A stretch of 64,000 nucleotides of DNA from Planctomycetota bacterium. Lineage in GTDB: Bacteria; Planctomycetota; B15-G4. The notes beneath the pieces were generated by a model. That model saw only the letters and a list, made by a program, of their open reading frames with translations, was not told the origin of the DNA and made no database searches. Every line of letters begins with the position of its first letter. The first letter of the stretch is position 1. Shown here piece by piece: positions 17,397 through 63,545 of this stretch. The stretch spans positions 30,746 to 94,745 of the forward strand of contig JAJDEQ010000056.1 of NCBI GenBank assembly GCA_029259695.1, given 5' to 3'. The translations under genes were made by a program, and so were the position numbers.

Positions 17397-17422
17397 CGAG
17401 GACGGACCCAGGAGATCCCACG

Positions 17423-26362: not shown

Positions 26363-26642
26363 GGGAACGCTTCTCTCTTCCAGGGACGAAGGGGCCGTGT
26401 CCGCGCGTCGGAGGGGCAATCGGTGGGGACGTCGCGCGAGCCTCGCGATGCCAGAGGAGGCCGAGGCAGAATCTGTCTGCTTTCGCCCGCTCTCTGCCGC
26501 ATCGAAGCACGCCTTCATCGACAGCTGGCAGCGGGCGCTGTAGCTCGCCGCGCCGTCGATCGCGGGCAGGGAACGCGTCTTCGCATCCCACATCGAACGA
26601 TGTCGATATAGCGCGTCGGGTGTCGACGAGTGCACGTCGCTC

Positions 26643-26710
26643 GGGGGGTGTCGCGCGGGGGTGTCGCGCGGGGGTGTCGCACGGGGGTGTCGCACGGGGG
26701 GCGTCGCGCG
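26643..26710. repeat. Intergenic 13-bp tandem repeat, 5 copies, consensus GGGGGTGTCGC(G/A)C
   Basis: Read directly: copies at 26644-26656, 26657-26669, 26670-26682, 26683-26695 and 26696-26708 (last copy degenerate, GGGGGGCGTCGCG). Lies 17-84 nt downstream of the kinase stop (26727) and ~280-350 nt upstream of the secreted-protein start (26362), both on the - strand. Confidence 0.9.
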
Positions 26711-26726
26711 GCTCCCCGGACCCCGT

Positions 26727-29363: not shown

Positions 29364-29755
29364 GGCGGCATGATAGACGAGCAGCGGCCGCCTCCGGCGC
29401 CCGCCCCACCCGGCTTCCGATCCCGGGGTACACTGCCAGGTGTCGCGATCCGAGTGGGAGGTCGGGCCGCGGCAGTGGAAGAAGACGTCAGGAGAAGAGT
29501 GCATGCCGTTCGCGCCCGCCCCCACGGGTCGCGCCGCCGGGTCATGGGATGCCCCGGGCGGTCCTCCGTACCTGCGCCCGCCGTGGTCGGGTGCGGAGTC
29601 CGGTGACGCTTCTGTCTCGCCTCGTTTTCGGCCTTCGTCCCCCCGCGCGCTGCCCTTGATCAGAAGGTGAGAGCCTTGGATCCAGGTCGGCGCACTCCGA
29701 AACGCGGCATCCGGCAGCGCGGTCGCGCTGCCGCCGCCGGAAGGATCACGTCGCG

Positions 29756-34151: not shown

Positions 34152-35963
34152 GTGACCACCGACGCACACCCCTTCCCGGCCGCCGTGAGCGAACGCTTCG
34201 ACGTGCGCGAGGAGCTGGTGCGCACGGAGCTCGAGGTGCTCGCGCGGGCACAGGATCGCACCCTGGGGCGCGAGGTCGTGCTCAAGGCCCTGGGGCCCGC
34301 GGCCGTCGAGGCGCTCGCGTCCCGTGAGGATCGCGAGCGGGCGTTGCGCGAGGCGCGCGCCCTGGCGCGGATCGATGGCGACGGCGTGGTGCGCCTGCTG
34401 GACGTGCTCGAGACGGAGCGCGGCCCGGTGCTGGTGCTCGAGCCCTTCGCGGGGGAGAGCCTGGCCGAGCGGCTCGCGCGGCACGCGGGTGAACCGATGG
34501 ACCCGGCCGACGTGCGTCGCCTGGCGTTCGACCTGGCCACGGCCCTGGAGAGCGTGCACCGCGCCGGCGTGGTCCACCGCGGGCTGTCGACGGGCAGTGT
34601 GCTGCTGAGCGCGGCGGGTCGACCGCGGCTCACGGGCTTCAGCTTCGCCCGCTGGGATCGCGCCACCGGCATGACCTCGATCGACTACGGTCGCGCGTCG
34701 TCGGATGCGGCCGGCAGCGAGGCCGTCGTGCTGCGACCGACGCACCCGGCCCCGGAGCAGGTGGCCGGCCAGCCGGCCGACGCGCGTTCCGATGTCTTCG
34801 CCCTGGGCTGCGTGCTGTACGAGTGCCTCACGGCGCGCAACCCGTTCCCCGCCGAGGACCCCGTCGATCGCGTCGCACCGCCGCCGGCGCACAAGCTGGT
34901 GCGGGACGTGCCCCGCGACCTGTCCGAACTGGTGGAGCGCTGCCTGGCGCGCAACCCGCTCAACCGGCCCCAGTCCGCGGGGGAGGTCGCGACCCAGTTG
35001 GCTGCGTTCGCCGACGAGTCACCCGCTGAGGCCGGCGAACGCCGTCATGCCTGGTGGCGCCCCGACGTGATGCAGTTGGCGCTGGCAGGCGCCGCCCTGT
35101 TCGCCGTGTGGGTGTTCGCCTTGCGCGGTGACGGAGAGGACGGCGAGCGTGGCGTCCAGCTGCTCGACCAAGACGCAGCCAGCGCAACCGTCGGGAGGAG
35201 CGGTGCGCCTGCCCTGCAAGCGTCCTACGTCGCCTCCCACGCGTTGCTGATCGGCATCGGCGAGGTGTACGCCGACCAGCGCTTCCCCGCACTCAGCAAC
35301 GCCGAGGCCGACGTCGCCGCGCTCGCTGCAAGGCTCGACGAGATGACCTGGGAGAACTGGCAGACGACCACGCTCACCGGAGCGGCGGCCACGCGCCAGG
35401 GCATCCTCAGCGCGCTGCGCGACGTGGAGCATCGTGCCGGGCCCGACGACCGGGTGTTCATCTACTACGCGGGGCACGGTGAGCCCCACGAACGGGCCAG
35501 CGAGAGCGGCTGGATCATCCCCGCGGGCGCTCGCCGCCAGGCGGAGGATCCCAGTCGCGCCGACTGGATCCGCTTCGACGAGTTCAGTCGCTTCTTCGAC
35601 GAGTCGGAGGCCAAGCACATCCTGGTGGCCATGGACTGTTGCTACAGCGGGCGCCTGGCCGCGCCCCGCTCCGCCACGTCCACGCGCTACAGCGAACGCT
35701 TCCTGCGCAGCAAGGCCCACGTCGTGATCACCTCCGGGCGTCGCTTCGAGGTGGTGTCGGACGGTGTGGCCGGCGCCCACTCGCCCTTCACCCGCGCCTT
35801 CCTCGACGCGCTGTCGCGCACCGACACCGAGGCCATGACCTCCAGTGCGCTGTACAGCGAGATCGCGGACGCGTTCGTCCAGGAGGGCATCGGCCAGACG
35901 CCGCAGTTCGCCTACCCGCCACGGCAGTCCCTGGGTCAGTTCGTCTTCTTCCTGCAGCCGTGA
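34152..35963 (+). CDS. Pseudokinase - TM helix - caspase-like (peptidase C14) fusion protein, 603 aa
   Basis: The N-terminal protein-kinase fold has degenerate catalytic motifs: no G-loop glycines, 'HRGLSTGS' in place of HRDLKPxN, and 'GFS' in place of DFG, while 'VVLKAL' and 'APE' are retained. TM helix 'VMQLALAGAALFAVWVFAL'. The C-terminal caspase domain keeps the His/Cys dyad ('FIYYAGHGE', 'VAMDCCYSG'). GTG start lies 13 nt after the FG-GAP stop. Confidence 0.8.
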   Translation: MTTDAHPFPAAVSERFDVREELVRTELEVLARAQDRTLGREVVLKALGPAAVEALASREDRERALREARALARIDGDGVVRLLDVLETERGPVLVLEPFAGESLAERLARHAGEPMDPADVRRLAFDLATALESVHRAGVVHRGLSTGSVLLSAAGRPRLTGFSFARWDRATGMTSIDYGRASSDAAGSEAVVLRPTHPAPEQVAGQPADARSDVFALGCVLYECLTARNPFPAEDPVDRVAPPPAHKLVRDVPRDLSELVERCLARNPLNRPQSAGEVATQLAAFADESPAEAGERRHAWWRPDVMQLALAGAALFAVWVFALRGDGEDGERGVQLLDQDAASATVGRSGAPALQASYVASHALLIGIGEVYADQRFPALSNAEADVAALAARLDEMTWENWQTTTLTGAAATRQGILSALRDVEHRAGPDDRVFIYYAGHGEPHERASESGWIIPAGARRQAEDPSRADWIRFDEFSRFFDESEAKHILVAMDCCYSGRLAAPRSATSTRYSERFLRSKAHVVITSGRRFEVVSDGVAGAHSPFTRAFLDALSRTDTEAMTSSALYSEIADAFVQEGIGQTPQFAYPPRQSLGQFVFFLQP

Positions 35964-36024
35964 CAGGCTCGGCAATGGCGCGGCCACGTGCATCGCACCG
36001 TCGTCGGCGGCTTCGATCTCGTCG

Positions 36025-38817
36025 CTACTGCCCCGAAGCGAGTTCGCGCAACTCGTTCACCGTCTGGACGCGGGCGGCGTAGCGGGCGTCGTCTTCGTGC
36101 AGGACGTCGAGAGCGGCGGTGGCGTGGAGCAGGGCCGCTTCGTAGTCGCTGGTCTTGAGGTGCAGGCTGGCGAGGGTGTCGAGGGTGGCGGAGAGGCGGT
36201 TGCGGTCGGCGGCCGAGGGGGGCGGGGCGCCTTCGGGCCGCTCCCACAGGCGTTCGAGCAGGCGCACGGCCTGGCGGGCGAAGGCCAGGGCTTCGTCGAG
36301 GGTGGCGCGGTCGCCGGTGTCGTCGTAGATCAGGCCCAGCGTGTACGCGGCGTTGTTGAGGGCCTCGATACTCGTGCCGTTCATGCGCAGGGCGTCGCGC
36401 AGGTGGCCGGCGTAGATCTGCAGGGCGTCGAGCGGGAAGTCGCCGATGTCGCCGTGTTGTCGTTTGAGTTGCTTGAGGCGGGCCAGGCCCAGGTTGAAGT
36501 GGCCTTCGAAGTACTCCGGGTCGAGGGCCACGGCGCGCTCGGCGCAGGCGACCGCTTCGGCGAGCAGCTCGTCGTCGCGCTCGGGTTGCAGTTCGGCTTG
36601 TTGCACCCGTACCGAGCTCAGCCCGATCTGGCCCAGGAGGGGGAGCCGCTCGGGTGCGGTGAGGGAGCCGTAGAGTTCGCCGGCCAGGTCGAGCCAGGGG
36701 GTGGCCTTGTCGCGGTAGCGGGCGGCCTCGTCGTCGTAGCCTGCGTCGCGGTAGGCCACGGCGTAGCGCGCCGGTGACGTGCTCTTGCCGTAGGCCTCGT
36801 GGGCGCACCAGGCCACGACCTGGTCGTCGTCGGCGTGTTCGCGACTGGCGCTGGCGAGCCAGGCGGCGGCTTCCTGCTCCAGGCCCTGGACGTCGAGCAG
36901 TTCGTAGCGCGCGCGCACGGCCATTTCGGTGGGCGTGTCGGGTTCCGCTTCGAGCGCCGCCAGTGCGTCGGACGCCTCGTCCCAGTGCCCCCGAGCGGCG
37001 GCGATGCGGAAGGCGAGCCACAGGCTCTGCAGGGTGTCGGTCTTGAACTCGCGGTAGTTGTCGAGGCGTCGGTCGGCGAGTTCGAGGTCGCGTAGCTCGA
37101 ACGAGATGCGCGCGAGCACGTAGTTGAGCTGGTCCCGGTCGGCGTCGGGCTGCCGCGCGGCGCGCTCGAAGGCGCTGTGGGCCTCGTTGTCCCAGCCCGC
37201 CTCGTCGTACACGAAGCCGAGACGCATCCAGTCCTCCCAGGACAGGTCGTCGGCGAGCGTCTCCAGGCGGGCGGTGGCGTCCTGCACGGTAGCCTCGTCG
37301 CCCAGGGCGTCGGCGGTGGCGGAGCGCAGGGCCTGGTACAGGGCCTCGGCGTCGGGGTCGCGGGCCAGGCGTTCGGTCCAGTCCCGGGCGAGCAGCGGGC
37401 GGCCGCGCACCAGGTAGGCGCCGGCGATGGCGGCGATATCGTCCTGGTCCAGGTGGTCGCCCCAGTTGGCGACGAAGGCCTCGATGTCGGCCAGGTCGCG
37501 GCGGTCCTCGGTGATGGAGAGCACCATGGCCTCGCTGGCCTTCTCGGCCAGGGACGTGCGGCGTTGGTCGAGCACGTGACGGGTGCCGAGCGCGCCGAGC
37601 CCGAGGGCCACGACGACGGCCGCCGGCGCGGCCCACGCCCGGCCCCGGGACAGGCGTCCCCCCAGGACCGTGAGCGGCCACGCGACGAGCAGGGTGGCCG
37701 CGACGATCGCGCCCAGGCGCGCGGTCTCCCCCGCTTGCGAAGGCCCGGCCCAGGGTGCGAGCAGCGCCAGGTCGAACGCGAACCAGGCCACGGCCACCAG
37801 CAGCGCGGTGAGCGCCAGCGACGACGTGGCCAACCGGCGCATGGAGCGCACGGCGCGGCCGACCATGCTCACGGGGCGCGCCAGGGTGGGCTGCTGGTGC
37901 AGGTAGCGCTGCAGGTCCGCGGCGAACGCCTCGGCGTCGGCGTAGCGGTCGTCGGGGGACTTCTCCAGCGCCTTGAGGCAGACCGCTTCGAGGTCGGCGT
38001 TCACGCCCGGTTGCAGCTTGCGCGGTGAGGCGGGTGCGCGGGTGAGGATGTCGATGAACACGCCCTGGGCCGTCTTGGCGGTGAACGGCACGCGGTGCGT
38101 GAGCATGCGGTAGAGCACCGCGCCCAGGCTGTACACGTCGGTGCGCGCGTCGAGAGTGCCGCGGGCCGGGTCGACCTGCTCGGGGCTCAGGTAGTGCGGC
38201 GTGCCCATCAGCGCACCGGTGCGTGACAGGCCGAGCTTGTCCTCGACCTTGGCCAGGCCGAAGTCGGTCAGCTTGGGTTCACCCGTCTCGGTGAGCAGCA
38301 CGTTGGCGGGTTTCACGTCCCGGTGGATCACGTTGTGCACGTGGGCGTGGGCCAGCGCATCGGCGAGGCGCGCGGTGACGGACGCCGACCATTCGCAGTG
38401 CGTCGCGTCGGTGCGCTCTTCCTTCCAGCGCCGCTCCTCGAGTTCGTCCTCCAGGCTGCCGCCGGTGACGTACTCCTGCACGATGGCGTGGTGACCGCCC
38501 AGCTCCATCAGGCCGTGGACGGACACGATGCTCGGGTGAGCCAGGCGTCCGGCCGCTTCGGCCTCGCGCTTGAAGCGCTCCACCTGTTCGCCCGTGAAGG
38601 TGATCTCGGCCGGCAGGATCTTCACGGCCACCTGGCGGTCGAGCGACTCCTGGTGCGCCTCGAAGACCACGCCTTGGGCGCCCCGGCCCAACTCGCGCAC
38701 CAGGGTGAAGTCGCCCCAGCGCGCGCCGGGCTCGATGCGCGTGCCGGGATCGCCTGCGGCTTCGGCCGCCAGCGTGGGTTCCCGTTCCCCGTCCCGCGTT
38801 GGATCCACCTCGGTCAT
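36025..38817 (-). CDS. Membrane-spanning Hanks-type Ser/Thr kinase with C-terminal TPR-like domain (paralog B), 930 aa
   Basis: 'LGRGAQGVV', 'VAVKIL', 'HRDVKPANVLL', 'DFGLA', 'YLSPEQ'. Three TM-like segments follow the kinase domain. Long stretches are near-identical to paralog A at DNA level (for example 37940-37985 versus 28512-28557). Confidence 0.9.
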   Translation of the reverse strand: MTEVDPTRDGEREPTLAAEAAGDPGTRIEPGARWGDFTLVRELGRGAQGVVFEAHQESLDRQVAVKILPAEITFTGEQVERFKREAEAAGRLAHPSIVSVHGLMELGGHHAIVQEYVTGGSLEDELEERRWKEERTDATHCEWSASVTARLADALAHAHVHNVIHRDVKPANVLLTETGEPKLTDFGLAKVEDKLGLSRTGALMGTPHYLSPEQVDPARGTLDARTDVYSLGAVLYRMLTHRVPFTAKTAQGVFIDILTRAPASPRKLQPGVNADLEAVCLKALEKSPDDRYADAEAFAADLQRYLHQQPTLARPVSMVGRAVRSMRRLATSSLALTALLVAVAWFAFDLALLAPWAGPSQAGETARLGAIVAATLLVAWPLTVLGGRLSRGRAWAAPAAVVVALGLGALGTRHVLDQRRTSLAEKASEAMVLSITEDRRDLADIEAFVANWGDHLDQDDIAAIAGAYLVRGRPLLARDWTERLARDPDAEALYQALRSATADALGDEATVQDATARLETLADDLSWEDWMRLGFVYDEAGWDNEAHSAFERAARQPDADRDQLNYVLARISFELRDLELADRRLDNYREFKTDTLQSLWLAFRIAAARGHWDEASDALAALEAEPDTPTEMAVRARYELLDVQGLEQEAAAWLASASREHADDDQVVAWCAHEAYGKSTSPARYAVAYRDAGYDDEAARYRDKATPWLDLAGELYGSLTAPERLPLLGQIGLSSVRVQQAELQPERDDELLAEAVACAERAVALDPEYFEGHFNLGLARLKQLKRQHGDIGDFPLDALQIYAGHLRDALRMNGTSIEALNNAAYTLGLIYDDTGDRATLDEALAFARQAVRLLERLWERPEGAPPPSAADRNRLSATLDTLASLHLKTSDYEAALLHATAALDVLHEDDARYAARVQTVNELRELASGQ

Positions 38818-38847
38818 CGACCGGGATCTTAAACTAGCCGGGTCTCT

Positions 38848-41800
38848 TCAGCGCTCGGGCTCGACGGTCACGTCGTCGATCCACACCGAACCGCTGTGGA
38901 CGTCGAAGAACAGCCAGGACTGCAGGGGCTCGCCGGCCGCATCCACGGCTGCGAGCACGCCCACCGGGACCACGAACTCGACCGTCTCCCAGGTCTCGAA
39001 GCCGTCCGAACGGGCGTCGCCCAGTTCGGTGAGGGCCGCCGCGCCGAAACGAGCGGCGCCGAGGCTCATGCGCAGCTTCGCGCCGGGGCCCGCCCAGACC
39101 CGCGCGCGCACTCGCAGCGGGACGTCCACCGGCAGGGGCTCCGACACGAGCGTGTAGGCCTGCCTGGCCGTGGCCGAGGGGTTGTCGATGCGCAGGGAGC
39201 GCTGGCCGGCGTAGGCCCAGGTGTCGTCGAGGGTCACGAGACCGAGCTCGGCCACGCCGAAGTGGGGCGGCACCTGGCGCCAGTCGTTGCCCGCGGCGAG
39301 TTCGGCCGGCAGGGGGGCCGCCTCGAACGTGCCCTGGCTGAGCAGGTCGTGGATCAGCATGTCGCGGCGCGAGCGCAGTCGCAGGGCGTCGACGCGCAGC
39401 TTCGGTTCACCGTTCACCAGCGAGATCGCCACGCGCAGGCCGGCCTGCGCGTCCTGTGGCGTGAGTTCGAACTCCGCGCTGGTGGTCTCCCAGCCGAACA
39501 GTCCCGTGGGCCGGAGCGAGGCGAGCACGTCGCCGTCGTGCAGGGATTCGACGCGCACTTCCGAGCCCGTGGGCGACGTGCTGCGCAGCCAGGTCGAGAG
39601 CAGGTAGGGGCCGGGCGCGAGGTCGGTCAGCTCCTGCCACAGGACGACGTCGCCGCGGCGCGAGTCGAGTTGCAGCGAGCTGTCGCCGGCGGCCGGGTCG
39701 TCGCCCAGCAGCTTGGCGCCGCCGAGGCCGTCCTTGGTCCAGGCCTCCAGGTCGTGCTCGAAGGCCCCGCCGAGCGGCAGGGAAGCGCGCAGGGGGGACG
39801 GCGCGCGCAGCGGCAGCACGCTGGCTGCGTTGAGCGTGACCTGGCCGCCGCCCTCGATGTCGACGCGCAGGGCGAAGGTCGCCAGCGAGCCGCCGTCGGT
39901 GTCGCGCGCCTCGAAGCTGAAGTCCTTCGCGCGAGCCGAGTCCAGCTCCAACGCCCCGGCCACGTTGCCCGTGAGTTCGTTGACGAACAGCAGGCGTCCG
40001 GGCGTGGAGGCGGCCGCGGTGCCCATCACGAGCAGGCGTTCACCGCCCGGCGTCGCGCCGAAGCGCGCCACCACGGTGCCGTCGGACGCGGGCGACGTGT
40101 CGAGCACCAGGTTCGGCAGCAGCCGCGCGTCCCACGCGCTGCCGGCGATCACCTCGACGTTGTCGACGGTCAAGGCGCCCCCTCCGTTGCTGCGGATCTC
40201 GAGCAGCCCGTCCACGTTCGCACCGGACGGGACCGTGCCGCTGGCGGTGGCGTAACCGCCGGGGCCGTCGCGCAGCGGCGTCTTGGCGACGGTCTGAGCC
40301 GTGCCCGCTACGGAGAGTCGGAGCTGGGCGGTGCCGACGCCGGACGTCGTGTCGTGCACGAGCAGGTGGTAGCGCTCGCCGGCCACCAGCGGGCCGATCG
40401 TCTGCTCGACGCGACTCGCGCCGCCCGCGGGCAGCCGCAGCGCGGCCCGGCCGGAGACGGCGTCGGTGCTGTGCTCGACGTCGCCCACGACCTGCCAGCC
40501 GACCGGGAGGTCGTCCTCCCAGCGCTCGAACCCGGCGTGCTCGGCCAGGTTGTCGCTGGGCGTGGAGAGCAGCTCGAGCACGTTGGCCGTGGCCACCTCA
40601 CCGTCCTCGAAGGGCACGGGCAGGTCGAAGAAGATCGGCCACTGCATGCTGCCGGCGTTGAGCACCGTGCCGAAGTCGTGGTGTGACGAGATCGCGGTGA
40701 ACCCGTCGCGCGCCGGCGCGTCGGCCAGCACCATCAGGTTGCCGGGGACGCCGGCCGTCGTGTTGGGGCTGCGGCGCCCGTCCACGAGCTCCATGTGGGC
40801 CCCGTCGACCTCGCCGCCGACGATCGTCATCCACCCGCTCACGGACGTGCCGCCCACGTCGACCGTGGCGTGCTTGATGCCGAACAGGTCGCCGCCCTGC
40901 AGGCCGAGTCCGGCGAACAGCGGGTGCTCGGGTTGCAGCACGCGGTAGTAGCCGTAGCGGTCGGCGTACTTGTAACAGGCCGTGATGCCGCCGTAGATGT
41001 ACTCGTGGCAGAAGTTCGTGAGCAGCGTGCTCCAGCCCGCGTTGCGCCAACCCAGCCCCAGCGTGCGGTCGGGCGGGTCGAGCACCGGCGGTCCGGCCCA
41101 GAGCGTGGTCACCAGCGCGCGCTCCTCGGCGTCGGTGCTGTCGAACAGCGGGTCGGAGGTGGGCTGCTTGTGACAGCGGATGGCGTTGTCGCCGTCCTCG
41201 AAGCGCACCTGCCAGTAGCAGGAGTTGCCGGCCATCACGAACACCGCGCCCCCGTTGCCGATGAAGGCGTCGACGGCGTCGCGCATGCTGCGCGACCAGT
41301 ACTCGTGGTGGCCGAACAGCACGAGCAGGCGGTAGGGGTCGAGCAGGCCCGGGTCGAGGTGCAGGTCCACGTCGCTCGCGTACTCGACCCCGTAGCCGGC
41401 CTGGTCGAACCAGTCGATCAGGTGCGGGTACCACTGGCCCGCCGGGGACGTGGGATCGATCGGGCGCGCCCACGACACGATCGGTTCGCGCGGCCCGTAG
41501 GCGCTCGCGTACAGGCTGGCGCCGCCCCAGGCGTTGTAGGCGGTGATGGTGCAGTCGGGTCGCAGCGAGATGATCGAGGTCGTGCTGCCGGGTTCGTCCT
41601 CGCGCACGATGAACGGGATGTCGAACAGGTCGGGTTCGGCCCGCGGTCCCGCGCGCAGCCGGGCGACGTACAGGCCCGACTTCCAGTCGCTCGGCACGTC
41701 GTGTTCGTAGCTGGTGGCCCAGCCCGCGCCGACGGCCCACGCTTCGGGTGGGATCGGCTGGGTGCCGCCTGGCAGGCCGGTGACCTGCCCCACGTGGGTC

Positions 41801-42183
41801 TCGCCGGCGCCGATGCGCAGGAAGTCGATCGCGTAGGTCGGGTGGGTGGTGGAGACCGCGAAGCCGATGCGCTCGCCCTGGGCGACGCTGAGACGGTCGG
41901 GGTGTCCCTCGAGCGGTCCGGGTGCGAACGAACCGTCACCGGCCGGGCCGGACTCCTCGAGCGCTGCGTCGCCGGCGAGGAACACGTCGAGCACCTGCTG
42001 CGGGCTCGGTGTGTGAGCCTGCGCCTGCATGCGCAGCCCTTCGGCGAAGCGCAGCGGGTCGTCCACCGTGACGGCGCGTTCGGCGGCCGGGAGCAGCGGA
42101 CGGACTTCGTCCCCGGAGGTCGTACGGCAGCCTGCACCCGTCAAGGCGAACGCACACAGCGTCAGCCCGACGCCGAGGCCCAC
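38848..42183 (-). CDS. Lipoprotein (1111 aa) with N,N-dimethylformamidase-beta-subunit-like domain and three C-terminal carbohydrate-binding-module-like domains
   Basis: Lipobox 'LTGAGC' after a GTG start. 'TAYNAWGGASLYAS' and 'GHHEYWSRSMRDAVDAFIGNGGAVFVMAGNSCYWQVRFE' match my recollection of the DMFase large-subunit-like family (not verified). Three ~150-aa modules end 'VDNVEVI', 'LRVDALRL' and 'VWIDDVTVEP', typical of CBM4/9- or galactose-binding-like folds. Confidence 0.75.
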   Translation of the reverse strand: MGLGVGLTLCAFALTGAGCRTTSGDEVRPLLPAAERAVTVDDPLRFAEGLRMQAQAHTPSPQQVLDVFLAGDAALEESGPAGDGSFAPGPLEGHPDRLSVAQGERIGFAVSTTHPTYAIDFLRIGAGETHVGQVTGLPGGTQPIPPEAWAVGAGWATSYEHDVPSDWKSGLYVARLRAGPRAEPDLFDIPFIVREDEPGSTTSIISLRPDCTITAYNAWGGASLYASAYGPREPIVSWARPIDPTSPAGQWYPHLIDWFDQAGYGVEYASDVDLHLDPGLLDPYRLLVLFGHHEYWSRSMRDAVDAFIGNGGAVFVMAGNSCYWQVRFEDGDNAIRCHKQPTSDPLFDSTDAEERALVTTLWAGPPVLDPPDRTLGLGWRNAGWSTLLTNFCHEYIYGGITACYKYADRYGYYRVLQPEHPLFAGLGLQGGDLFGIKHATVDVGGTSVSGWMTIVGGEVDGAHMELVDGRRSPNTTAGVPGNLMVLADAPARDGFTAISSHHDFGTVLNAGSMQWPIFFDLPVPFEDGEVATANVLELLSTPSDNLAEHAGFERWEDDLPVGWQVVGDVEHSTDAVSGRAALRLPAGGASRVEQTIGPLVAGERYHLLVHDTTSGVGTAQLRLSVAGTAQTVAKTPLRDGPGGYATASGTVPSGANVDGLLEIRSNGGGALTVDNVEVIAGSAWDARLLPNLVLDTSPASDGTVVARFGATPGGERLLVMGTAAASTPGRLLFVNELTGNVAGALELDSARAKDFSFEARDTDGGSLATFALRVDIEGGGQVTLNAASVLPLRAPSPLRASLPLGGAFEHDLEAWTKDGLGGAKLLGDDPAAGDSSLQLDSRRGDVVLWQELTDLAPGPYLLSTWLRSTSPTGSEVRVESLHDGDVLASLRPTGLFGWETTSAEFELTPQDAQAGLRVAISLVNGEPKLRVDALRLRSRRDMLIHDLLSQGTFEAAPLPAELAAGNDWRQVPPHFGVAELGLVTLDDTWAYAGQRSLRIDNPSATARQAYTLVSEPLPVDVPLRVRARVWAGPGAKLRMSLGAARFGAAALTELGDARSDGFETWETVEFVVPVGVLAAVDAAGEPLQSWLFFDVHSGSVWIDDVTVEPER

Positions 42184-42292
42184 TTTCGAACGCGTGAGAA
42201 CCGTGGGAGGTTCCTTCGGGGAGCGTGTTCGTGTCGAGGTGGTCGAGTCACAAGAGCATACCCGACCCCTCTGGGAGCGGCTCCCGGATCGC

Positions 42293-43336
42293 TCAGGAGA
42301 ACTTCTCCCAGTGCTCCTCCGGCATGTCCTGGGCGATCTTCAGGGCCCCGTTGCAGCCGGCAAACAGGGGCTCCTCGCACTTCGTGACGCGGCCGCCGCC
42401 GAGCTCGTCCATGGCCCGCTCGATGGCCCGGTCGAGGCCGCGGATCATGGAGCCGCCGCCGCCCAGCAGCACGTTCTCGCGCAAGCGGTGCTGGAAGTCC
42501 GGCTCGAACGAACCGATCAGGCGCGCCATGGCCTCGGCGATCGGCTTGGCGATCGAGGCGCAGGCCTCGACCACGTCCTTGGTCACGTCGAACTCCTGGG
42601 GACGGCCGTCCACCGGGAGCGTCACCTTGATCGGCGTGCCGGTGTCCTCGACGGTCGCGAAGCGCTCCTTCAGGTCCTTGACCATGTGGATGCTGAACTG
42701 GGCGCCCTTGCACGACGTCTTCATGCGATCCAGGAGGGCCCGGTCCACGAAGTCGCCGGCCGTGTCGAGCGTGAGCTGGTCGTCCACCGTGGGCAGCACG
42801 CCGTGCATGCGGCACAGGTCCACGGTCCCGGCGCCGATGTCGATCACCAGCGTCTCGTCGAGCCGGTCGAGCCCGTAGGCCACCGCGAAGGGTTCCGAGC
42901 AGATCAGCACCGAGTCGACCAGACCCTTGACCGACTCGATGATCAGGCGCTTGTTCTCGCTCGATGCGAGCGCCGGTGCGCCGATCACGCAGTACGTCAG
43001 GTCACCCTGGCGCGGCCGGGCCAGCTCCAGTGCGTGGCGCACGATGTCCTTCGCCGCCTCGAACTCGGTGTTGGCCTCGCCCTCCGAGATGCCCTCACTC
43101 TTGATCACGCCCTCGGCGAGGGGCTGGTGGAAGTCCAGCGACGTGCGGCGCTCGAGTGCTTCGGCGCCGTAGATCGCCTTGCGGTTCCCGAACAGCTTGC
43201 GGGAGACGACATCCTTCGGGTAGCCGACGCACGTCGCCATCGACTCGCGCACGCCGTTGCTGGCGGCCACGGCCGTGCGGCTCGTTCCCAGGTCCATCCC
43301 GATGTAGAGGATGCCTTCGTCTTTCTTCTTGGTCAC
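42293..43336 (-). CDS. MamK-family actin-like protein, 347 aa
   Basis: GTG start with GGGAG 4-5 nt upstream. 'IGMDLGTSRTAV' (phosphate-1), 'GYPKDVV', 'SEPFAVAYGL', 'VIDIGAGTVDLC' (phosphate-2), 'LLGGGGSMIRGLDRAI' (adenosine), 'EPLFAGCNGALKIA'. By recollection it is collinear along its length with Magnetospirillum MamK ('GYPKDVI', 'IVDIGAGTTDIC', 'FAGGGSRIRGL'). Confidence 0.85.
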   Translation of the reverse strand: MTKKKDEGILYIGMDLGTSRTAVAASNGVRESMATCVGYPKDVVSRKLFGNRKAIYGAEALERRTSLDFHQPLAEGVIKSEGISEGEANTEFEAAKDIVRHALELARPRQGDLTYCVIGAPALASSENKRLIIESVKGLVDSVLICSEPFAVAYGLDRLDETLVIDIGAGTVDLCRMHGVLPTVDDQLTLDTAGDFVDRALLDRMKTSCKGAQFSIHMVKDLKERFATVEDTGTPIKVTLPVDGRPQEFDVTKDVVEACASIAKPIAEAMARLIGSFEPDFQHRLRENVLLGGGGSMIRGLDRAIERAMDELGGGRVTKCEEPLFAGCNGALKIAQDMPEEHWEKFS

Positions 43337-43420
43337 GTCGCTCCCGTCTTCATGTGTGGGTCGCGTGCGCCGATCGATCGGCGCGGACGACCCGTCGTTC
43401 GCTGGCGGTGGAGATCGAGG

Positions 43421-43996
43421 TCACGAGGGGTCGCTGGACTCCCTCAGCGCCAGGTTCTCCTCCACGATCTTGGTCAGCAGCGAGATCTTCTTGCGGTCGT
43501 GCTGCGCGTCCACGGCGCCGCCGGCCAGCGGCGAGTCACTCCAGGTCGTCGCCAGTCCCTCGATCGGCAGGCTCTCGAGCTGGAGGCGCAGCGTGGCGAC
43601 GTCGGACTCGCTCGACTCGAGGTCGCGGGCCATCGCCTTGAGGCGCCGCCGCAGGAACTGGATCTCCTCGGCCTGGTCCACGTCGAGTCCCGCGACGAAC
43701 GGGCGCGGCCCGAAGGGTCTGGGGGACCCCGCCGGGTCGACCTCCGTCGCCGTGTCCGCGTCGGCCACGGGCCGTCGGGTCAGGGGGTCGGCCGCGCGGC
43801 GGCGCAGGGCCGATCGCGAGAAGCCCGAGCTGCTGACAAGCCCGTCGGATCGACGCCACGCGGCGGCGTCTCGGGTGCCCAGCTTGTGCCACATGGGTCT
43901 CGGCTCGTCGGGCTCACGCCCGGGGGGGATTCGCTGCGGGTGGATCCCGCCCGTGAATTGATCGGTATTTCCCCACTCCGAATCAAGGCAACTCAT
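43421..43996 (-). CDS. Hypothetical protein with C-terminal coiled-coil, immediately upstream of the MamK-like gene
   Basis: The C-terminal ~90 aa 'QAEEIQFLRRRLKAMARDLESSESDVATLRLQLESL...LLTKIVEENLALRE' are heptad-like. The N-terminal half is P/R/G-rich and disordered-looking. Start is uncertain (ATG 43996 or ATG 43894). Stop lies 84 nt before the MamK-like start. Confidence 0.5.
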   Translation of the reverse strand: MSCLDSEWGNTDQFTGGIHPQRIPPGREPDEPRPMWHKLGTRDAAAWRRSDGLVSSSGFSRSALRRRAADPLTRRPVADADTATEVDPAGSPRPFGPRPFVAGLDVDQAEEIQFLRRRLKAMARDLESSESDVATLRLQLESLPIEGLATTWSDSPLAGGAVDAQHDRKKISLLTKIVEENLALRESSDPS

Positions 43997-44232
43997 CGTC
44001 AGTGTCCGCGGCGGCCGGCTGCCGAGGCATGGGGGAACATGCCCCTGGCGCTATACTGCGCGTCTCAGCGCGGAAACGGACCGCCCCGGACGAATCGCCG
44101 GGACGTCGCCGATGCCGGGCGGAGGGGAGCCATGCGAGGTGGGTCCCCGGGTCGCGAGACCCCAGGTCGAAGAGGCAGTCGGGCAGGCAGTCGGGCAAGC
44201 CCTGGCGGGCGGCAGGATCGGAGGCGAGGGGC

Positions 44233-44721
44233 ATGGCGGTCGTGACCCGCAGGCGGCTCGATGGGGCACGCCTGCCCTCCCGGCGTCTGGCCCGGGCCCT
44301 GCCGTTGCTGGAGGCGAGCATGCCGCGGCTGCACGCAGCCCACGGGGGCTTTCGCATCGAGGGACACGTGCCCGAGCTCTCGCGGGCCTTCCAGGACCTG
44401 GTGGACCTGCTGTCGGGGCAGTTCGGGGTGGGGACCAAGCGCGTCGTGCTGCGCGATCGCCCGCGTCCGCACCGTCGCCGGGGCGGACGCATCGTCTACG
44501 AGCTGCACGGGAGTTGCGAGCAGGAGGGGACGGTCGAGGTCTACCTGCGCACGGCGGCGCGGGCCCAGCCCGTGGCGCTGCCCACGTTGCTCAACACGGT
44601 GCTGCACGAGTGGATGCACCACTGGGACTTCGAGACCTTCGGCACGTCGATCCACTGCCGCGGCTTCTACGAGCGACTGCGCCAGGTGTACCGCCCGCTG
44701 CGCGTCCGGCTCTCCGCGTGA
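44233..44721 (+). CDS. Putative zinc metallopeptidase (HExxH; SprT/YgjP-like), 162 aa
   Basis: ATG 44233 preceded by GGAGGCGAGGGG. 'TLLNTVLHEWMHHWDFETFG' contains HExxH, followed by 'HCRGFYERL'. The family call is weak. Confidence 0.5.
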   Translation: MAVVTRRRLDGARLPSRRLARALPLLEASMPRLHAAHGGFRIEGHVPELSRAFQDLVDLLSGQFGVGTKRVVLRDRPRPHRRRGGRIVYELHGSCEQEGTVEVYLRTAARAQPVALPTLLNTVLHEWMHHWDFETFGTSIHCRGFYERLRQVYRPLRVRLSA

Positions 44722-44938
44722 TCGCGAACGGGGCCGGCTCCCGGGCGCAGCCTCCCGCGCCGGGGCGGTCACGGGGCCGACACAACGGCGCCACCTGGGT
44801 CCGGCAGGTCGGCGCTACGATGGGCGACGCTGGATCGGACGCGCCCGGCGCGCCTTCCCTCCTTCCGACGAGCGGCACCCTGCACGTGCCCCGTCCCTCA
44901 GACTGCCCCCGATACCCAGTGCCCTTGGAGCGACGACC

Positions 44939-46759
44939 ATGAAACGGATTCCCCTCTGCCTGTCGTTGGTCGGTGCCCTGTGGGCCGGCAGCACGGCGAT
45001 CGCCGCCGATGGCGACGACTCGGATGCTCCTCGGGTGAAGGTGGTCGAGCTGCGCATCTCCTCGAACGCGGCCGAAGATCCCGCGCCGGCCAACCCGCTG
45101 GGCGGCACCCGCCGCAACTTCCGCAGCAAGCTGGCCCTGCTGCGGCGCATCGCCTCCGACCCCGCCGTGGCCGGCGTCAAGCTGGAAGTGAGCGGGGCCC
45201 CGGACTTCGCCCGGGCGCTCGATCTGCTCGAGCAACTCAACGAGCTCAAGACGGCCGGCAAGAAGATCGTCTGCTACACCGAGCAGCTCACCCAGGGCCA
45301 GCTGCACATGGCCTCGTGCGCCGACCTGCTGGTCGTGCCGCCGTCGGGGATGATCATCCTCGAGGGGCTCGCGGCCGAAGTGATGTACATGAAGGACCTG
45401 CTGGCGAAGCTCGACGTGCGCGTCGAACTGCTCACCATGGGTGACCACAAGACCGCCTACGAGCAGCTCGGGCGCAGCGACATGAGCGCGGCACAGCGCG
45501 TGATGCTCGAGCAGATGCTCGACGAGTACTACGGCCAGATGATCGCCACCATCGCGCGCAACCGCGGGATCGCCCCGGCCGCGGTCGAGGCCTTGTTCGG
45601 TCAGTTGATCGTCGATCCGCAGCTGGCCGCCGAGGGCGGGCTGATCGATGCGGCCGTCTACCACGACGGGTTCGAACAGCGCGTGGAGACGCTCTTCGGC
45701 GGTGAGGTCGAGTACGTCGACGACTACGGCGACGACGAGATGCAGGACATCGAGGCACTCATGAGCAACCCCTTCGCGCTCATGGCCAACCTGGAGTCGA
45801 TCCTCAACCCGCCGCCGCCCAAGGCCCCGGCCGAGCCGCACGTCGCGATCGTGTACTGCAGCGGCGCGATCATCAGCGGCAAGAGCCAGGTGGACATGCA
45901 GGGCAATGTCGCGAGCATGGGCAGCGACACGATCGTGGCCGCGCTCGAGAAGGTCCGCAAGGACGACAACTGCAAGGCCGTCGTGCTGCGCGTGAACAGC
46001 CCGGGCGGCAGCGCCCTGGCGAGCGACATGATCTGGCGCGCGATCGAGCGGGTGCGCGAGAAGAAGCCCGTGATCTCGTCGATGGGCTACGTCGCAGCGT
46101 CCGGTGGTTATTGGATCTCCATGGGCTGCGACGCGATCATGGCCCAGCCCAGCACGATCACCGGGTCGATCGGCGTGGTCTCCATGCTGCCCGACGTGTC
46201 GAGCATGGTGAAGGATCTCGGTATCAACGTGGAGGTCGTCGCCCGCGGACCCATGGGCGACAAGCTGAGCCTGCTGCGCAACGGGCCGTCGGAAGAACTC
46301 AAGCAGATCATGCGCGGCTGGATGGAGAACGTGTACGACGAGTTCATCCACAAGGTCGCCACGGGCCGACGCATGCAGCCCGATGCGGTGCGCGCCATCG
46401 CCGGCGGTCGCGTGTGGACCGGGCGCAAGGCCGAGGAGCTGGGCCTGGTCGACGTGCTGGGCGGCCTGGATGACGCCATCGCCCTGGCCTGCACCATGGG
46501 CGGCAGCCTCGATCCGGAGCAGACGCCGGTGGCCGAGTACCCGCACCCGGCCAACTTCTTCGAGCAGCTCGAAGAGTCGATGAACGAGATGGCGATGGCG
46601 CCCGACATGGCGCTGGGAGACCTGGCGCTGGACGCCATGCTGCGTCGCTTCGGGGTAGAGGCGTACCGCCCGCTGGTCGACGACGTGCTGTCGTCGCCGG
46701 CGCACATGAACGCGTCCCGGGTGCAGTGCATCCTGCCGTGGAGCATTCGCCTGCGCTGA
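44939..46759 (+). CDS. sppA: Signal peptide peptidase SppA, 67K (two-domain) type, 606 aa
   Basis: Signal peptide 'MKRIPLCLSLVGALWAGSTAIAADG'. Duplicated ClpP/crotonase-like halves. C-terminal half carries 'VVLRVNSPGGSALASDMIW' and the catalytic-Ser context 'MGYVAASGGYWIS' ... 'ITGSIGVV'. Confidence 0.85.
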   Translation: MKRIPLCLSLVGALWAGSTAIAADGDDSDAPRVKVVELRISSNAAEDPAPANPLGGTRRNFRSKLALLRRIASDPAVAGVKLEVSGAPDFARALDLLEQLNELKTAGKKIVCYTEQLTQGQLHMASCADLLVVPPSGMIILEGLAAEVMYMKDLLAKLDVRVELLTMGDHKTAYEQLGRSDMSAAQRVMLEQMLDEYYGQMIATIARNRGIAPAAVEALFGQLIVDPQLAAEGGLIDAAVYHDGFEQRVETLFGGEVEYVDDYGDDEMQDIEALMSNPFALMANLESILNPPPPKAPAEPHVAIVYCSGAIISGKSQVDMQGNVASMGSDTIVAALEKVRKDDNCKAVVLRVNSPGGSALASDMIWRAIERVREKKPVISSMGYVAASGGYWISMGCDAIMAQPSTITGSIGVVSMLPDVSSMVKDLGINVEVVARGPMGDKLSLLRNGPSEELKQIMRGWMENVYDEFIHKVATGRRMQPDAVRAIAGGRVWTGRKAEELGLVDVLGGLDDAIALACTMGGSLDPEQTPVAEYPHPANFFEQLEESMNEMAMAPDMALGDLALDAMLRRFGVEAYRPLVDDVLSSPAHMNASRVQCILPWSIRLR

Positions 46760-62263: not shown

Positions 62264-62338
62264 GCCCTGTGGCATCCGTGACCTCGGGGTACCCCTCGGT
62301 GAGGGTCTGCCAGAGCCACCGGGTCCGCAGGAGTCAAC

Positions 62339-62755
62339 ATGGCCAAACCCCGCAATTTCCTGTTCGTGTGCAAGGGAAACGACGCCCGCAGCCAGATGGC
62401 CGAGGGTTTCGCCCGCGCCCTGGCAGGTCCGTCGGTCAACGTCTACAGCGCGGGGGCCGAACCGCGGATTCTCAATCCCTTCGCCGTGGCCGTGATGGAG
62501 GAGATCGGCATCGACATCTCCGACCAGGCCCCCAAGAACTTCGACAAGATCCCGGTCACCAAGATCGACACGGTGATCACCCTGAGTTCGGACGCCGACC
62601 CGCTGCCGAAGCTCAAGAAGCGCAAGGTGACCCAGATCCACTGGCCGCTCACCGATCCGGCTGCGGCCGCGGGGAACGACGCCGAGGTGAAGAAGGCCTT
62701 CCGCGCCGTCCGGGACGAGATCAAGAACCGCGTTCAGGTCCTGCTCGTCGGCTGA
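62339..62755 (+). CDS. ArsC-type low-molecular-weight phosphatase family protein, 138 aa
   Basis: P-loop 'FVCKGNDARSQMAEG' (CX5R-S). Collinear, by recollection, with S. aureus pI258 ArsC ('YFICTGNSCRSQMAEG', 'VYSAG', 'TLCSDAD', 'VRDEIK'). Confidence 0.8.
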   Translation: MAKPRNFLFVCKGNDARSQMAEGFARALAGPSVNVYSAGAEPRILNPFAVAVMEEIGIDISDQAPKNFDKIPVTKIDTVITLSSDADPLPKLKKRKVTQIHWPLTDPAAAAGNDAEVKKAFRAVRDEIKNRVQVLLVG

Positions 62756-63522: not shown

Positions 63523-63545
63523 CGTAGCGCGCGGGGCGAGCGGCG

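Follow-up and report, generated by a model that had tools for sequence, protein, structure and literature searches.

The MamK-like actin gene in the planctomycete DNA examined here (a stretch of 64,000 nucleotides, called the window) probably forms, with the gene of a small partner protein just upstream, a two-gene cytoskeletal module that is typical of Planctomycetota and that lies here beside two unrelated neighbors. We regard these neighbors, a DMFase-like secreted protein and a membrane kinase, as lineage-specific and possibly co-transcribed with the pair, but not functionally coupled to it. All four open reading frames are present on the - strand at the positions given in the first-pass annotation, whose gaps of 84 nt (43337-43420), 109 nt (42184-42292), and 30 nt (38818-38847) are exact. 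In the order of transcription, the features are as follows.

43421-43894, - strand: partner gene, 157 aa (exact product on an NCBI record; profile match)
43424-43702, - strand: C-terminal domain shared by the partner family, residues 65-157 (AF2 model, family alignments)
43337-43420, - strand: partner-actin spacer, 84 nt, with a near-palindrome at 43358-43393
42293-43336, - strand: MamK-like ("saltatorellin-type") actin-fold ATPase, 347 aa (NCBIfam, PDB, motifs, neighbor-joining tree)
42184-42292, - strand: spacer 3' of the actin stop codon, 109 nt; weak hairpin of 5 bp, T-run absent
38848-42183, - strand: DMFA2_C-domain protein, 1,111 aa (Pfam PF20254)
36025-38817, - strand: Ser/Thr kinase (kinase B), 930 aa (Pfam Pkinase, TPR-like C-terminal region)

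Identity and distribution of the MamK-like actin

Judged from its sequence, the product of 42293-43336 is a genuine actin-fold ATPase, and MamK is its closest characterized family. It aligns end to end with MamK of M. magneticum (PDB 5ljw/5jyg; E value, 1.5e-72), while the corresponding PDB matches to BeeR and MreB have E values of 2.3e-35 and 2e-10. The NCBIfam MamK model NF040964 covers residues 10 to 346 of 347 with 385.4 bits (E value, 2e-115), a borderline score that narrowly misses the curated cutoff of 400 bits. The collinearity with MamK and the motifs that had been cited in its support (VGYPKDV, DIGAGTVDLC, GGGGSMIRGL, and AGCNGAL) were all found in the product. Its nucleotide-binding motifs are intact (D15-L-G-T-S, E148, D166-I-G-A-G-T, and G293-G-G-S); in alignment with MamK, the phosphate-1, phosphate-2, adenosine, and catalytic Glu motifs of the ASKHA fold are represented by DLGTS, SEPF, DIGAGT, and GGGS. 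E148, in the SEPF motif, is the equivalent of MamK E143, and the motif residues are invariant in a 36-sequence alignment of the clade. The gene starts with GTG, with GGGAG 5 nt upstream. An identity as MreB was rejected (NF010539, 57.2 bits versus a cutoff of 293; TIGR00904, 50 versus 365.75; 25% identity to MreB of C. crescentus), as was an identity as BeeR (NCBIfam BeeR, 196.6 bits versus a cutoff of 530).

Phylogeny had been proposed as a check on the assignment to MamK rather than MreB, and it places the window actin in a clade sister to magnetosome MamK, with MreB outside. In neighbor-joining trees computed from simple distances with just two outgroups, the planctomycetal MamK-like clade that includes the window actin received 95% bootstrap support (80 sequences; 89% in a second tree), and MamK of magnetotactic bacteria (MTB) formed a clade with 72% support, BeeR and MreB falling outside; the grouping of MamK with the planctomycete sequences against BeeR received only 51%. 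The window actin is 56 to 72% identical to 40 sampled clade members and 30 to 40% identical to MTB MamK, and it forms a subclade with P0002, P0003, P0005, and P0009 (support, 98.5%).

The window gene is no oddity but belongs to a large family of MamK-like actins, nearly all of which come from Planctomycetota, nonmagnetic ones included. More than 4,343 homologues were found at an E value of ≤1e-10, a count that takes in MamK-superfamily members from outside the planctomycetal clade; the best 120 of these are all at least 55% identical to the window actin, and all organism-named sequences among those 120 are from Planctomycetota. By title, 69 of 80 genome loci are from planctomycete lineages, several of them on chromosomes of 5.8 to 8 Mb. 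The earlier remark that a MamK-type filament tied to an envelope lipoprotein and a kinase has no described function is partly out of date: many clade members, including ones about 57% identical, already carry the NCBI label "MamK family actin-like protein."

Saltatorellin, the MamK-like actin of Saltatorellus, comes from a planctomycete-related, nonmagnetotactic bacterium; it is reported to branch beside MamK and to form filaments in Escherichia coli and in mamK-deficient M. gryphiswaldense (bioRxiv 10.1101/817700). The primers given there for S. ferox Poly30 encode the termini MTDITTD... and ...YWEQLK, and the latter C terminus occurs in 11 members of the window actin's clade. Compared by these primer-encoded termini, saltatorellin would belong to the same clade. 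The preprint passages on saltatorellin mention no partner gene and describe it as a specialty of Saltatorellota (bioRxiv 10.1101/817700); the clade, in contrast, extends across Planctomycetota.

BeeR, a three-stranded tubular actin of Verrucomicrobiota (PDB 8r2n), is likewise MamK related and from nonmagnetotactic PVC bacteria, and it is the second-best structural and NCBIfam match of the window actin. It differs in its low identity (29%; 126 bits), in its position outside the grouping of MamK and planctomycete sequences, and in its N terminus: the disordered domain of about 35 residues that is the hallmark of BeeR is absent from the window actin, where about 8 residues lie ahead of the first conserved strand.

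It is also conceivable, though rather unlikely, that the protein serves as a housekeeping actin for cell shape or division, standing in for MreB or FtsA in a phylum without FtsZ, and that the partner merely regulates its expression or assembly. The clade is nearly phylum-wide, FtsZ is absent from Planctomycetota (PMC11032199), and the preprint passages propose a role in shape change for saltatorellin (bioRxiv 10.1101/817700). However, the window actin is no MreB ortholog, the same passages credit Saltatorellus with an MreB as well, and the neighborhoods contain no cell-wall or division genes; some contain polysaccharide export genes. Such a role concerns what the filament does for the cell and is compatible with the mechanism of a two-gene module.

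The partner family and its N-terminal variants

The partner is the only neighbor conserved across loci in all-against-all clustering. With an independent HMM, a homologue was found upstream on the same strand, ending within 400 nt of the actin gene, at 77 of 84 loci, a detectable partner being missing at 7; only 3 further matches, partner paralogs away from an actin gene, turned up in 1.42 Mb of six-frame sequence. A jackhmmer search seeded by the window partner alone recovered upstream same-strand homologues at about 78 loci. The spacer between the two genes, 84 nt in the window, has a family median of 86 nt. The association of the small upstream protein with the actin, as first proposed, is borne out by this conservation of the pair.

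The family is unannotated and undescribed, and its members share a C-terminal helix-loop-helix domain. It comprises 997 representative clusters (50% identity) matching at an E value of ≤1e-3, all with names that are either "hypothetical" or evidently spurious automatic labels, and the domain falls outside every Pfam family. The domain is always C-terminal in the open reading frames of the loci and extends to the C terminus in nearly all of the 150 best library matches. Its terminal helix carries the motif K[KR][EA]LMxxIFxANLxL[QRK]K, whose N occurs in every one of the 76 open reading frames where the motif search anchored on it.

In the window, the longest open reading frame of the partner spans 43421-43996, but the start is most likely at 43894: the exact 157-aa product from that position is recorded at NCBI, and its N terminus, MWHKLG, resembles the MWKRLG of the closest homologue. 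Residues 1 to about 64 are rich in Pro and Arg, have low-confidence predictions, and probably lack order. The AF2 model has pLDDT values of >90 across most of the first helix of the C-terminal domain (residues 65 to 108, bearing the motif RRRLKAMARDLESSESD) and across the terminal helix (residues 130 to 154, KKISLLTKIVEENLALR), the two being separated by a loop. The C-terminal coiled coil ascribed to this protein at first reading has only indirect support, from this long helix of the model and from weak matches of the domain profile to coiled-coil chains.

The window partner is a weak member of its family (22.8 bits with the independent profile), and it matched no family in Pfam, NCBIfam, or PHROG. 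A profile built without the window sequence and that of its closest relative, L081, retrieved it as the sole match among the 707 six-frame open reading frames of the window (E value, 2.5e-6), and phmmer aligns it with the L081 partner at an E value of 1.4e-11. The most conserved loop motif of the family, central and nearly invariant (GxxSxYRxVQGL, or more narrowly GxxSIYRxVQGL), is degenerate in the window partner (EGLATTWSDSPLAGG); the L081 partner has GELPAGGAFPAGL at this position. Because this motif is lost, the window partner may work differently or be decaying.

The N termini of the family vary. At 22 of 79 loci, the partner begins with a GGDEF domain that is degenerate but in most cases retains its I-site, and Pfam GGDEF was detected in 45 of 124 family members. 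A profile of this N terminus matches PDB GGDEF domains at an E value of 2e-21, and Foldseek aligns its AF2 model with 3ign at a TM score of 0.84. Among 48 such partners examined, GG[DE]EF is kept in none, RxxD in 35, and the first metal Asp in all 48. Loss of the GG[DE]EF active site with retention of the RxxD I-site is a signature of c-di-GMP effector domains, PopA being a degenerate GGDEF receptor of this kind. By these sequence features, the GGDEF N termini are candidate c-di-GMP sensors without catalytic activity. The resemblance to PopA (a GGDEF fold, GG[DE]EF lost and RxxD kept) extends to about a quarter to a third of the lineages; the difference is that the domain occurs in the partners of relatives and is absent from the window partner, which matches neither Pfam PF00990 nor TIGR00254, and c-di-GMP binding is putative. 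In the literature searched, we found no description of a GGDEF domain fused to an actin-linked C-terminal domain.

At 23 other loci, a gene for a tyrosine autokinase-like (BY-kinase) ATPase lies directly upstream of the partner on the same strand (TIGR01007, 132.7 bits, above the cutoff of 108), and in at least 9 of these 23 the partner has a different N-terminal domain of about 55 aa. The BY-kinase gene never co-occurs with GGDEF-type partners. In the window subclade, the partners have only a short N-terminal stretch, so the window, where that stretch is probably disordered, carries a minimal version.

The partner is likely a filament adaptor or regulator. If it behaves like MamK and the Saltatorellus homologue, the window actin would polymerize with ATP into cytoplasmic filaments. 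The long first helix of the partner domain would dimerize as a coiled coil, and the C-terminal domain, above all its last helix (K[KR]xLMxxIFxANLxL), may dock on the actin, a proposal drawn solely from gene linkage, conservation, and analogy with ParR-ParM and MamJ-MamK. The N terminus, whether GGDEF, the ~55-aa domain, or a short stretch, would then be an exchangeable input or anchor. The C-terminal helix of ParR docks into a cleft of ParM, and this docking served as the model for the role proposed for the terminal helix of the partner.

The downstream neighbors

The 1,111-aa protein had been described as a DMFase-like lipoprotein. Its DMFA2_C domain is clear (Pfam PF20254, residues 125 to 517; E value, 2.1e-60; 205.6 bits versus a cutoff of 27), and by inspection its N terminus, MGLGVGLTLCAFALTGAGC, resembles a signal peptide; as a lipoprotein it is not established, the box being noncanonical before either Cys. 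A metagenome scan returned no relatives of this protein. The 930-aa protein has Pfam Pkinase (E value, 4.6e-45) and TPR matches, and its hydrophobic segments at residues 328 to 360 and 366 to 385 fit the proposed membrane kinase. Over 813 aa, it shares 45% identity with the kinase encoded at 26727-29999 (kinase A), so its designation as paralog B holds.

It had been suggested that a filament is tied here to an envelope lipoprotein and a kinase. That the four genes form one operon and one system, a kinase-regulated filament coupled to an envelope lipoprotein with the partner included, is quite improbable. The genes do lie on one strand, 84, 109, and 30 nt apart, and their GC3 values are similar (0.88 to 0.93). 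Neither a canonical terminator nor a sigma-70 promoter was detected among them; the weak 5-bp hairpin noted earlier after the actin stop codon is present (GGGAG-CCG-CTCCC), and the RNA fold of the 109-nt spacer has a z score of -1.21. With no terminator between the actin and DMFase-like genes, the downstream genes may be co-transcribed with the pair, but by itself this would not imply a common function. Against a single system, none of 80 related loci (actins 49 to 59% identical) has a DMFase-like neighbor, and kinase-domain matches occur in 6 of the 80, kilobases away (5 to 7 kb upstream of the actin gene in four). The seven closer loci, L081 to L087 (59 to 69% identity; L081, 69%; L086, 68%; L082 to L085, 64 to 66%), each have other downstream genes, with no DMFase and no kinase. 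Moreover, with four Ser/Thr kinases encoded in the window, having one as a neighbor is no more than chance would predict, and kinase A is not beside any MamK-like gene. Since a nonconserved neighborhood had been named beforehand as speaking against the idea, its operon part fails, while the upstream pair passes. We place the end of the conserved two-gene module at the 109-nt spacer.

Comparison with partition and magnetosome systems

The logic of an actin gene beside a gene for a small adaptor recalls the type II partition systems ParM-ParR and AlfA-AlfB, and a DNA segregation actin of the ParM/Alp type, with the small protein as a centromere-binding adaptor, would account for the adjacent partner gene, a weak match to a PHROG "partition protein" (E value, 2.9e-4), and the palindrome in the spacer (36 nt, 43358-43393, core CGCCGATCGATCGGCG). 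We consider this very unlikely. In the known systems, which are plasmid borne, the adaptor gene lies downstream and its product binds centromere repeats located upstream; here, the partner gene lies upstream, no iterated centromere-like repeat array is present, and the locus is chromosomal, as are its relatives on 5.8- to 8-Mb chromosomes. The partner has no recognizable DNA-binding domain but in many lineages a GGDEF domain instead, and no homology to the partition systems was detected, the NCBIfam ParM/Alp models giving nothing except weak, far-sub-cutoff matches to PRTRC protein D and FtsA. The 84-nt spacer folds as RNA no better than shuffled sequence (z score, -0.78).

The two-gene module also resembles magnetosome systems, in which MamK works with nonenzymatic partners: MamJ and, in deep-branching magnetotactic bacteria, coiled-coil Mad proteins (PMC12748827). 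MamK (PDB 5ljw, 5jyg, and 5ljv) is collinear with the window actin over 337 residues, has the same nucleotide-binding and catalytic motifs including the E143 equivalent, and supplies its nearest solved structure and its best NCBIfam model. In keeping with the first-pass annotation, no magnetosome genes were recognized in the 64 kb: a Pfam scan of 32 window proteins or stop-to-stop open reading frames gave no Cation_efflux, MamI, MamF/MmsF, Trypsin/PDZ/MCR, TauE, or LemA, a scan that very small genes (mamI, mamL) could escape. In a real magnetosome cluster that served as a positive control (L089/L090), where mamK sits within the mamAB genes, all of these Pfam families were flagged near mamK. 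The mam families were also absent nearby in seven related loci with precomputed Pfam listings. Although MamK is the closest characterized family and metagenomics has suggested magnetosome genes in some Planctomycetes (PMC12748827), it is extremely improbable that the window gene encodes a genuine magnetosome MamK, from a magnetotactic planctomycete whose cluster lies beyond the window, given the separate clade, the setting outside mamAB, and a distribution in Planctomycetota far too wide for every carrier to be magnetotactic. The partner profile matched neither of two MamK-clade loci, and the acidic repeat protein encoded upstream of mamK in L090 is not related to the window partner.

The MamK-like actin and its clade

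The window has a G+C content of ~70%, and its MamK-like actin gene lies within four consecutive minus-strand ORFs with GC3 values of 0.88 to 0.93.

ORFs of the actin locus
43421-43894, minus strand: partner (small protein; stop at 43421, likely start at 43894), 157 aa, no Pfam match
42293-43336, minus strand: MamK-like actin, 347 aa, Pfam MreB_Mbl/Salactin/Actin
38848-42183, minus strand: DMFase-like protein, 1111 aa, Pfam DMFA2_C (2.1e-60)
36025-38817, minus strand: kinase B, 930 aa, Pfam Pkinase and TPR

The first-pass annotation had described the same ORFs, the same intergenic gaps (84, 109, and 30 nt), and a set of MamK motifs; the ORFs and gaps were reproduced here, and every one of the motifs was found in the alignment of the window actin with MamK. 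The start of the partner is most likely at 43894, because the exact 157-aa product is on the NCBI record and its N terminus agrees with that of the closest homologue.

Among NCBIfam models, the window actin scores highest against MamK (385.4 bits; cutoff, 400), followed by BeeR (196.6; cutoff, 530) and MreB (57; cutoff, 293), an order identical to that obtained against solved structures (MamK, 1.5e-72; BeeR, 2.3e-35; MreB, about 1e-10). Residues 9 to 345 are collinear with MamK, and E148 aligns with the catalytic residue of MamK, E143. The actin motif residues, including E148, are invariant across 36 aligned close homologues. These scores, the collinear alignment, and the invariant motifs place the window actin in the MamK lineage rather than among MreB proteins, as an actin-fold ATPase that looks functional from its sequence.

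A search of 5.8 billion proteins found >4,343 homologues of the window actin at an E value of ≤1e-10, a count that extends to the MamK superfamily as a whole. The top 120 of these are all at least 55% identical, every organism-named one among them is from Planctomycetota, and several carry the NCBI label "MamK family actin-like protein." Scanning species-representative genomes yielded 80 loci at 49 to 59% identity to the window actin, several of them on chromosomes of 5.8 to 8 Mb; by title, 69 of the 80 belong to planctomycete lineages (including Phycisphaerales, Brocadiaceae, and Kuenenia), 9 are unlabeled, and Myxococcota and Omnitrophota contribute 1 each. A metagenome scan with the window actin gave no confirmed relative. 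In an 80-sequence neighbor-joining tree (41 members of this group, 37 drawn from the best matches of Magnetospirillum magneticum MamK, BeeR, and Caulobacter crescentus MreB), the planctomycetal MamK-like group is monophyletic (bootstrap, 95%), and its sister group is the magnetotactic MamK clade (72%), with BeeR and MreB outside both. The window actin is 56 to 72% identical to members of its own clade and 30 to 40% identical to magnetosome MamK.

The window actin is thus an ordinary member of a large planctomycetal clade that has already been noticed. According to a preprint (bioRxiv 10.1101/817700; cited in PMC11032199), Saltatorellus has such an actin, saltatorellin, whose branch lies next to MamK and which assembles into filaments in Escherichia coli and in mamK-deleted Magnetospirillum gryphiswaldense; this is the sole description of such a protein that we found in the literature. 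The sequence YWEQLK is common to 11 clade members and to the primer-encoded C terminus of saltatorellin, the only portion of that protein compared. BeeR provides a second precedent, as a MamK relative in nonmagnetotactic PVC bacteria (PMC11929497).

No Cation_efflux, MamI, MamF_MmsF, Trypsin/PDZ/MCR, TauE, or LemA domain was detected by Pfam among 32 window proteins or stop-to-stop ORFs. The same families were recovered in classical mamAB order at the MamK-clade gene of a Mariprofundus metagenome-assembled genome (MAG), which served as the positive control. The earlier proposal of a MamK-lineage actin outside a magnetosome context therefore holds for the window, and a "MamK family" label in Planctomycetota should not be read as a sign of magnetosomes, which corrects an annotation habit. 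A further nonmagnetosome context, here for a gene of the MamK-proper clade, was observed in a deltaproteobacterial MAG (L088:2243-4968), in which two MamK-type actins flank a 162-aa TM-plus-coiled-coil protein and no mam genes occur within 11 kb.

A conserved partner encoded upstream of the actin

In all relatives examined with gene calls, the actin is preceded by a same-strand gene that has no Pfam match, encodes 186 to 251 aa, and ends 33 to 94 nt upstream of it. The window partner matches these upstream genes by phmmer (E values, 1.4e-11 to 1.3e-7), and jackhmmer started from the window partner alone recovered homologues upstream of the actin and on its strand in about 78 loci. With an HMM built from 29 C-terminal domains, a match ending ≤400 nt upstream of the actin was found in 77 of the 84 loci that have enough upstream sequence, the window included; the median spacer was 86 nt, and only three matches fell elsewhere in 1.42 Mb of six-frame sequence. 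When the window sequence and that of L081, a close relative, were left out of the profile, the window partner was still the only match among 707 window ORFs (E value, 2.5e-6). All-against-all ORF clustering identified the partner as the sole neighbor conserved across loci. The suggestion that the small upstream protein belongs with the MamK-like actin is thus supported by this linkage. Extra copies of the partner lie 1 to 7 kb from the actin-linked copy in three related loci (L039:10388-11563, L063:16890-17930, and L005:7089-8267); no second actin follows them, so partner paralogs can exist alone.

The conserved domain is always at the C terminus of the partner ORF and consists of a long helix (consensus, LERRIAKLTxxLxxTEEEL), a loop with a nearly invariant GxxSIYRxVQGL, and a terminal helix, K[KR][EA]LMxxIFxANLxL[QRK]K, whose N is present in 76 of the 76 ORFs in which the motif search was anchored on it. 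A profile search of 1.84 billion representatives matched 997 clusters at an E value of ≤1e-3 and 825 at ≤1e-10; in nearly all of the best 150 of the 997 matches, the domain reaches the C terminus. Source names within the family are all "hypothetical" or evidently spurious automatic labels, the domain is not represented in Pfam, NCBIfam, or PHROG, and its profile matched only weak, generic coiled-coil chains in the PDB. In the AF2 model of the window partner, residues 1 to 64 have low confidence and two confident helices (65 to 108 and 130 to 154) are joined by a loop; a Foldseek search with this model gave no match. The window partner and its nearest relative, that of L081, both have a degenerate central loop motif, and the window partner is a minimal, divergent member of the family. 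Searches of the accessible literature turned up no account of the partner, and what is new here is this conserved unannotated family together with its GGDEF and BY-kinase variants.

The variable N termini of the partners in related loci suggest what the role of the partner is. A Pfam GGDEF domain is present in 45 of 124 partner-family representatives; a profile of 48 GGDEF-type partners matches solved GGDEF domains with an E value of 2e-21, and the AF2 model of one such partner (pLDDT, 80) has a TM score of 0.84 to 3ign. None of the 48 keeps GG[DE]EF, the site reading xDDR[LI], while the RxxD I-site five residues upstream is kept in 35 and the first metal-binding Asp in all 48. Loss of GG[DE]EF with retention of RxxD is characteristic of c-di-GMP receptor domains, PopA being an example. 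In a second variant, a 233-aa BY-kinase-like P-loop ATPase is encoded on the same strand immediately upstream of the partner-actin pair in 23 loci (L087:8427-9128 and 22 others, e.g., L003, L008, L013, L016, and L031) and divergently in 5 more; it passes the NCBIfam model for polysaccharide biosynthesis tyrosine autokinase (TIGR01007, 132.7 bits; cutoff, 108). Partners in the ATPase-linked loci have no GGDEF domain, and by motif recognition at least 9 of the 23 carry a different N-terminal domain of ~55 aa. The GGDEF-type partner and the ATPase never co-occur (22 of 22 GGDEF-type loci are without the ATPase), and the remaining loci have, like the window, short partners.

A link of the pair to exopolysaccharide machinery is possible. 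In L081, L084, and L085, the pair is surrounded by genes for polysaccharide export and glycosyltransferases. The window itself encodes a low-molecular-weight phosphotyrosine phosphatase (62303-62755) and a Polysacc_synt protein (63528-63998) about 19 kb from the pair.

At the 5' edge of the classical magnetosome cluster of the Mariprofundus sp. MAG (L090:1729-3085; JAUZRH010000020.1) there is a second actin (335 aa) that resembles the planctomycetal clade more than it does MamK (identity to the window, 42% against 36%) and is sister to that clade with 79% bootstrap support. The gene that precedes it by 22 nt encodes a 108-aa single-TM protein, whose C terminus, KGEMFKDILSENMELRAA, fits the terminal-helix motif of the partner. 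The partner-family HMM gave no significant match to this protein, and the likeness, at motif level only, is a hint that fits the proposed binding of the partner family to actins.

The DMFase-like and kinase neighbors

The proposed four-gene operon failed as a unit when its conservation was examined by tblastn: DMFase-like relatives occur in 0 of 80 related loci, and kinase domains occur in 6 of 80, several kilobases away (in four of the six, 5 to 7 kb upstream on the same strand). Among the closest relatives with usable contigs (L081, 69% identity; L086, 68%; L082 to L085, 64 to 66%; L087, 59%), of which L081 falls in the same subclade as the window (98.5% bootstrap), the genes downstream of the actin differ in each, and none encodes a DMFA2_C or Pkinase protein. 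A metagenome scan with the DMFase-like protein gave no confirmed relative. Since the 64-kb window contains four Ser/Thr kinases, finding one within a few kilobases of the actin is no surprise. Kinase A (26727-29999), which shares 45% identity with kinase B over 813 aa, has no MamK-like gene beside it. The earlier interpretation was therefore half right: a MamK-lineage actin outside a magnetosome context with a small upstream neighbor stands, and the DMFase-like "lipoprotein" and the kinase are incidental neighbors. Cotranscription of the partner-actin pair with these two genes is possible, and nothing indicates a shared function.

Scans of the region found no sigma-70-like promoters and no canonical terminators, Rfam returned no families over 35500-44800, and RNA folds of both spacers were no better than those of shuffled sequence. 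The 84-nt partner-actin spacer contains a 36-nt near-palindrome at 43358-43393 (core, CGCCGATCGATCGGCG) with a 14-bp interrupted stem, which could be an operator or processing site; the fold energy of the spacer is not unusual for its G+C content. Divergent from the partner is an ORF at ~44300-44721 on the plus strand with an HExxH motif (LHEWMHH) and no Pfam or NCBIfam match, upstream of a gene for an SppA-type S49 peptidase (about 44900-46759).

A same-strand "downstream cluster" of 57 loci from the all-against-all clustering was rejected, as it consisted mostly of alternative-frame ORFs of GC-rich actin genes. Its real part is a gene of about 900 to 1300 aa without a Pfam match in roughly 10 to 12 related loci, which has no counterpart in the window.

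Kinases A and B are paralogous large membrane kinase-TPR proteins, both on the minus strand, each adjoining a presumably secreted protein of >1100 aa.

Neighbors of the paralogous kinases
22922-26746: neighbor of kinase A, CarboxypepD_reg-rich
38848-42183, minus strand: neighbor of kinase B, DMFA2_C protein

Such a pairing of a kinase with a large secreted protein may be the actual recurring unit in the window. A plus-strand gene (34152-35963), whose stop codon lies about 60 nt from that of kinase B in convergent orientation, encodes a Ser/Thr kinase fused to a caspase (Peptidase_C14; NCBIfam match to the "EACC1-associated" caspase type), an architecture that resembles that of a defense or programmed-cell-death protein.

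A possible signal-gated module and a second actin pair

An actin-fold ATPase with intact motifs, its clade membership, a tight phylum-wide linkage to the partner, and the domain architecture of the partner family make up the observed system. The C-terminal helix of ParR sits in the cleft of ParM. By analogy with that pair, and with the MamJ or Mad coiled-coil proteins that work with MamK (PMC12748827), the partner would bind the actin through its conserved C-terminal domain; it may dimerize via its long helix, and its N-terminal module would supply regulation or anchoring, leaving the window pair as a probable stripped-down version. Filament formation by a planctomycete-related MamK-like actin has been shown by others (bioRxiv 10.1101/817700).

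It is conceivable, though rather unlikely, that the Planctomycetota, which have no FtsZ, use the pair as a signal-gated cytoskeletal module in which C-terminal helices dock on a MamK-like filament and interchangeable N-terminal modules couple filament assembly or anchoring to c-di-GMP (dead GGDEF, live I-site), to phosphotyrosine signaling (the BY-kinase-like ATPase), or to membranes (the TM-anchored mini-partner by the second actin that borders the Mariprofundus magnetosome cluster). If so, this would be the first bacterial actin under second-messenger control, and it would point to an older, more widespread adaptor-plus-actin system as the source from which magnetosome MamK was co-opted. FtsZ plays no part in the division and shape changes of planctomycetes, and little is known of their cytoskeleton; a MamK-like actin that spans the phylum and has a fixed partner, which carries a c-di-GMP-receptor-like domain in some lineages and has a tyrosine-kinase-like ATPase alongside in others, is a concrete, testable candidate cytoskeletal system. 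For the window, the practical message is more modest: an ordinary clade actin with incidental DMFase-like and kinase neighbors.

The window has a second actin-like gene, of the Volactin family (PF25216, 1.7e-67; likely 17420-18544, plus strand), which starts 24 nt after a plus-strand ORF (11517-17396) for a 1959-aa Ala/Leu/Glu-rich protein with coiled-coil-type Pfam matches. The window therefore contains two pairs of an upstream helical protein and an actin, the actins being of different families. An HMM of the ~55-aa N-terminal domain, built from partners in some ATPase-linked loci (consensus, TSVDxLKKxGVxxVxVLGxDRIxxLIExAVHRSL), had as its only match among the 707 window ORFs residues 54 to 109 of this 1959-aa protein (11676-11843, plus strand; E value, 6e-6), and the domain may be common to partners of two actin families.
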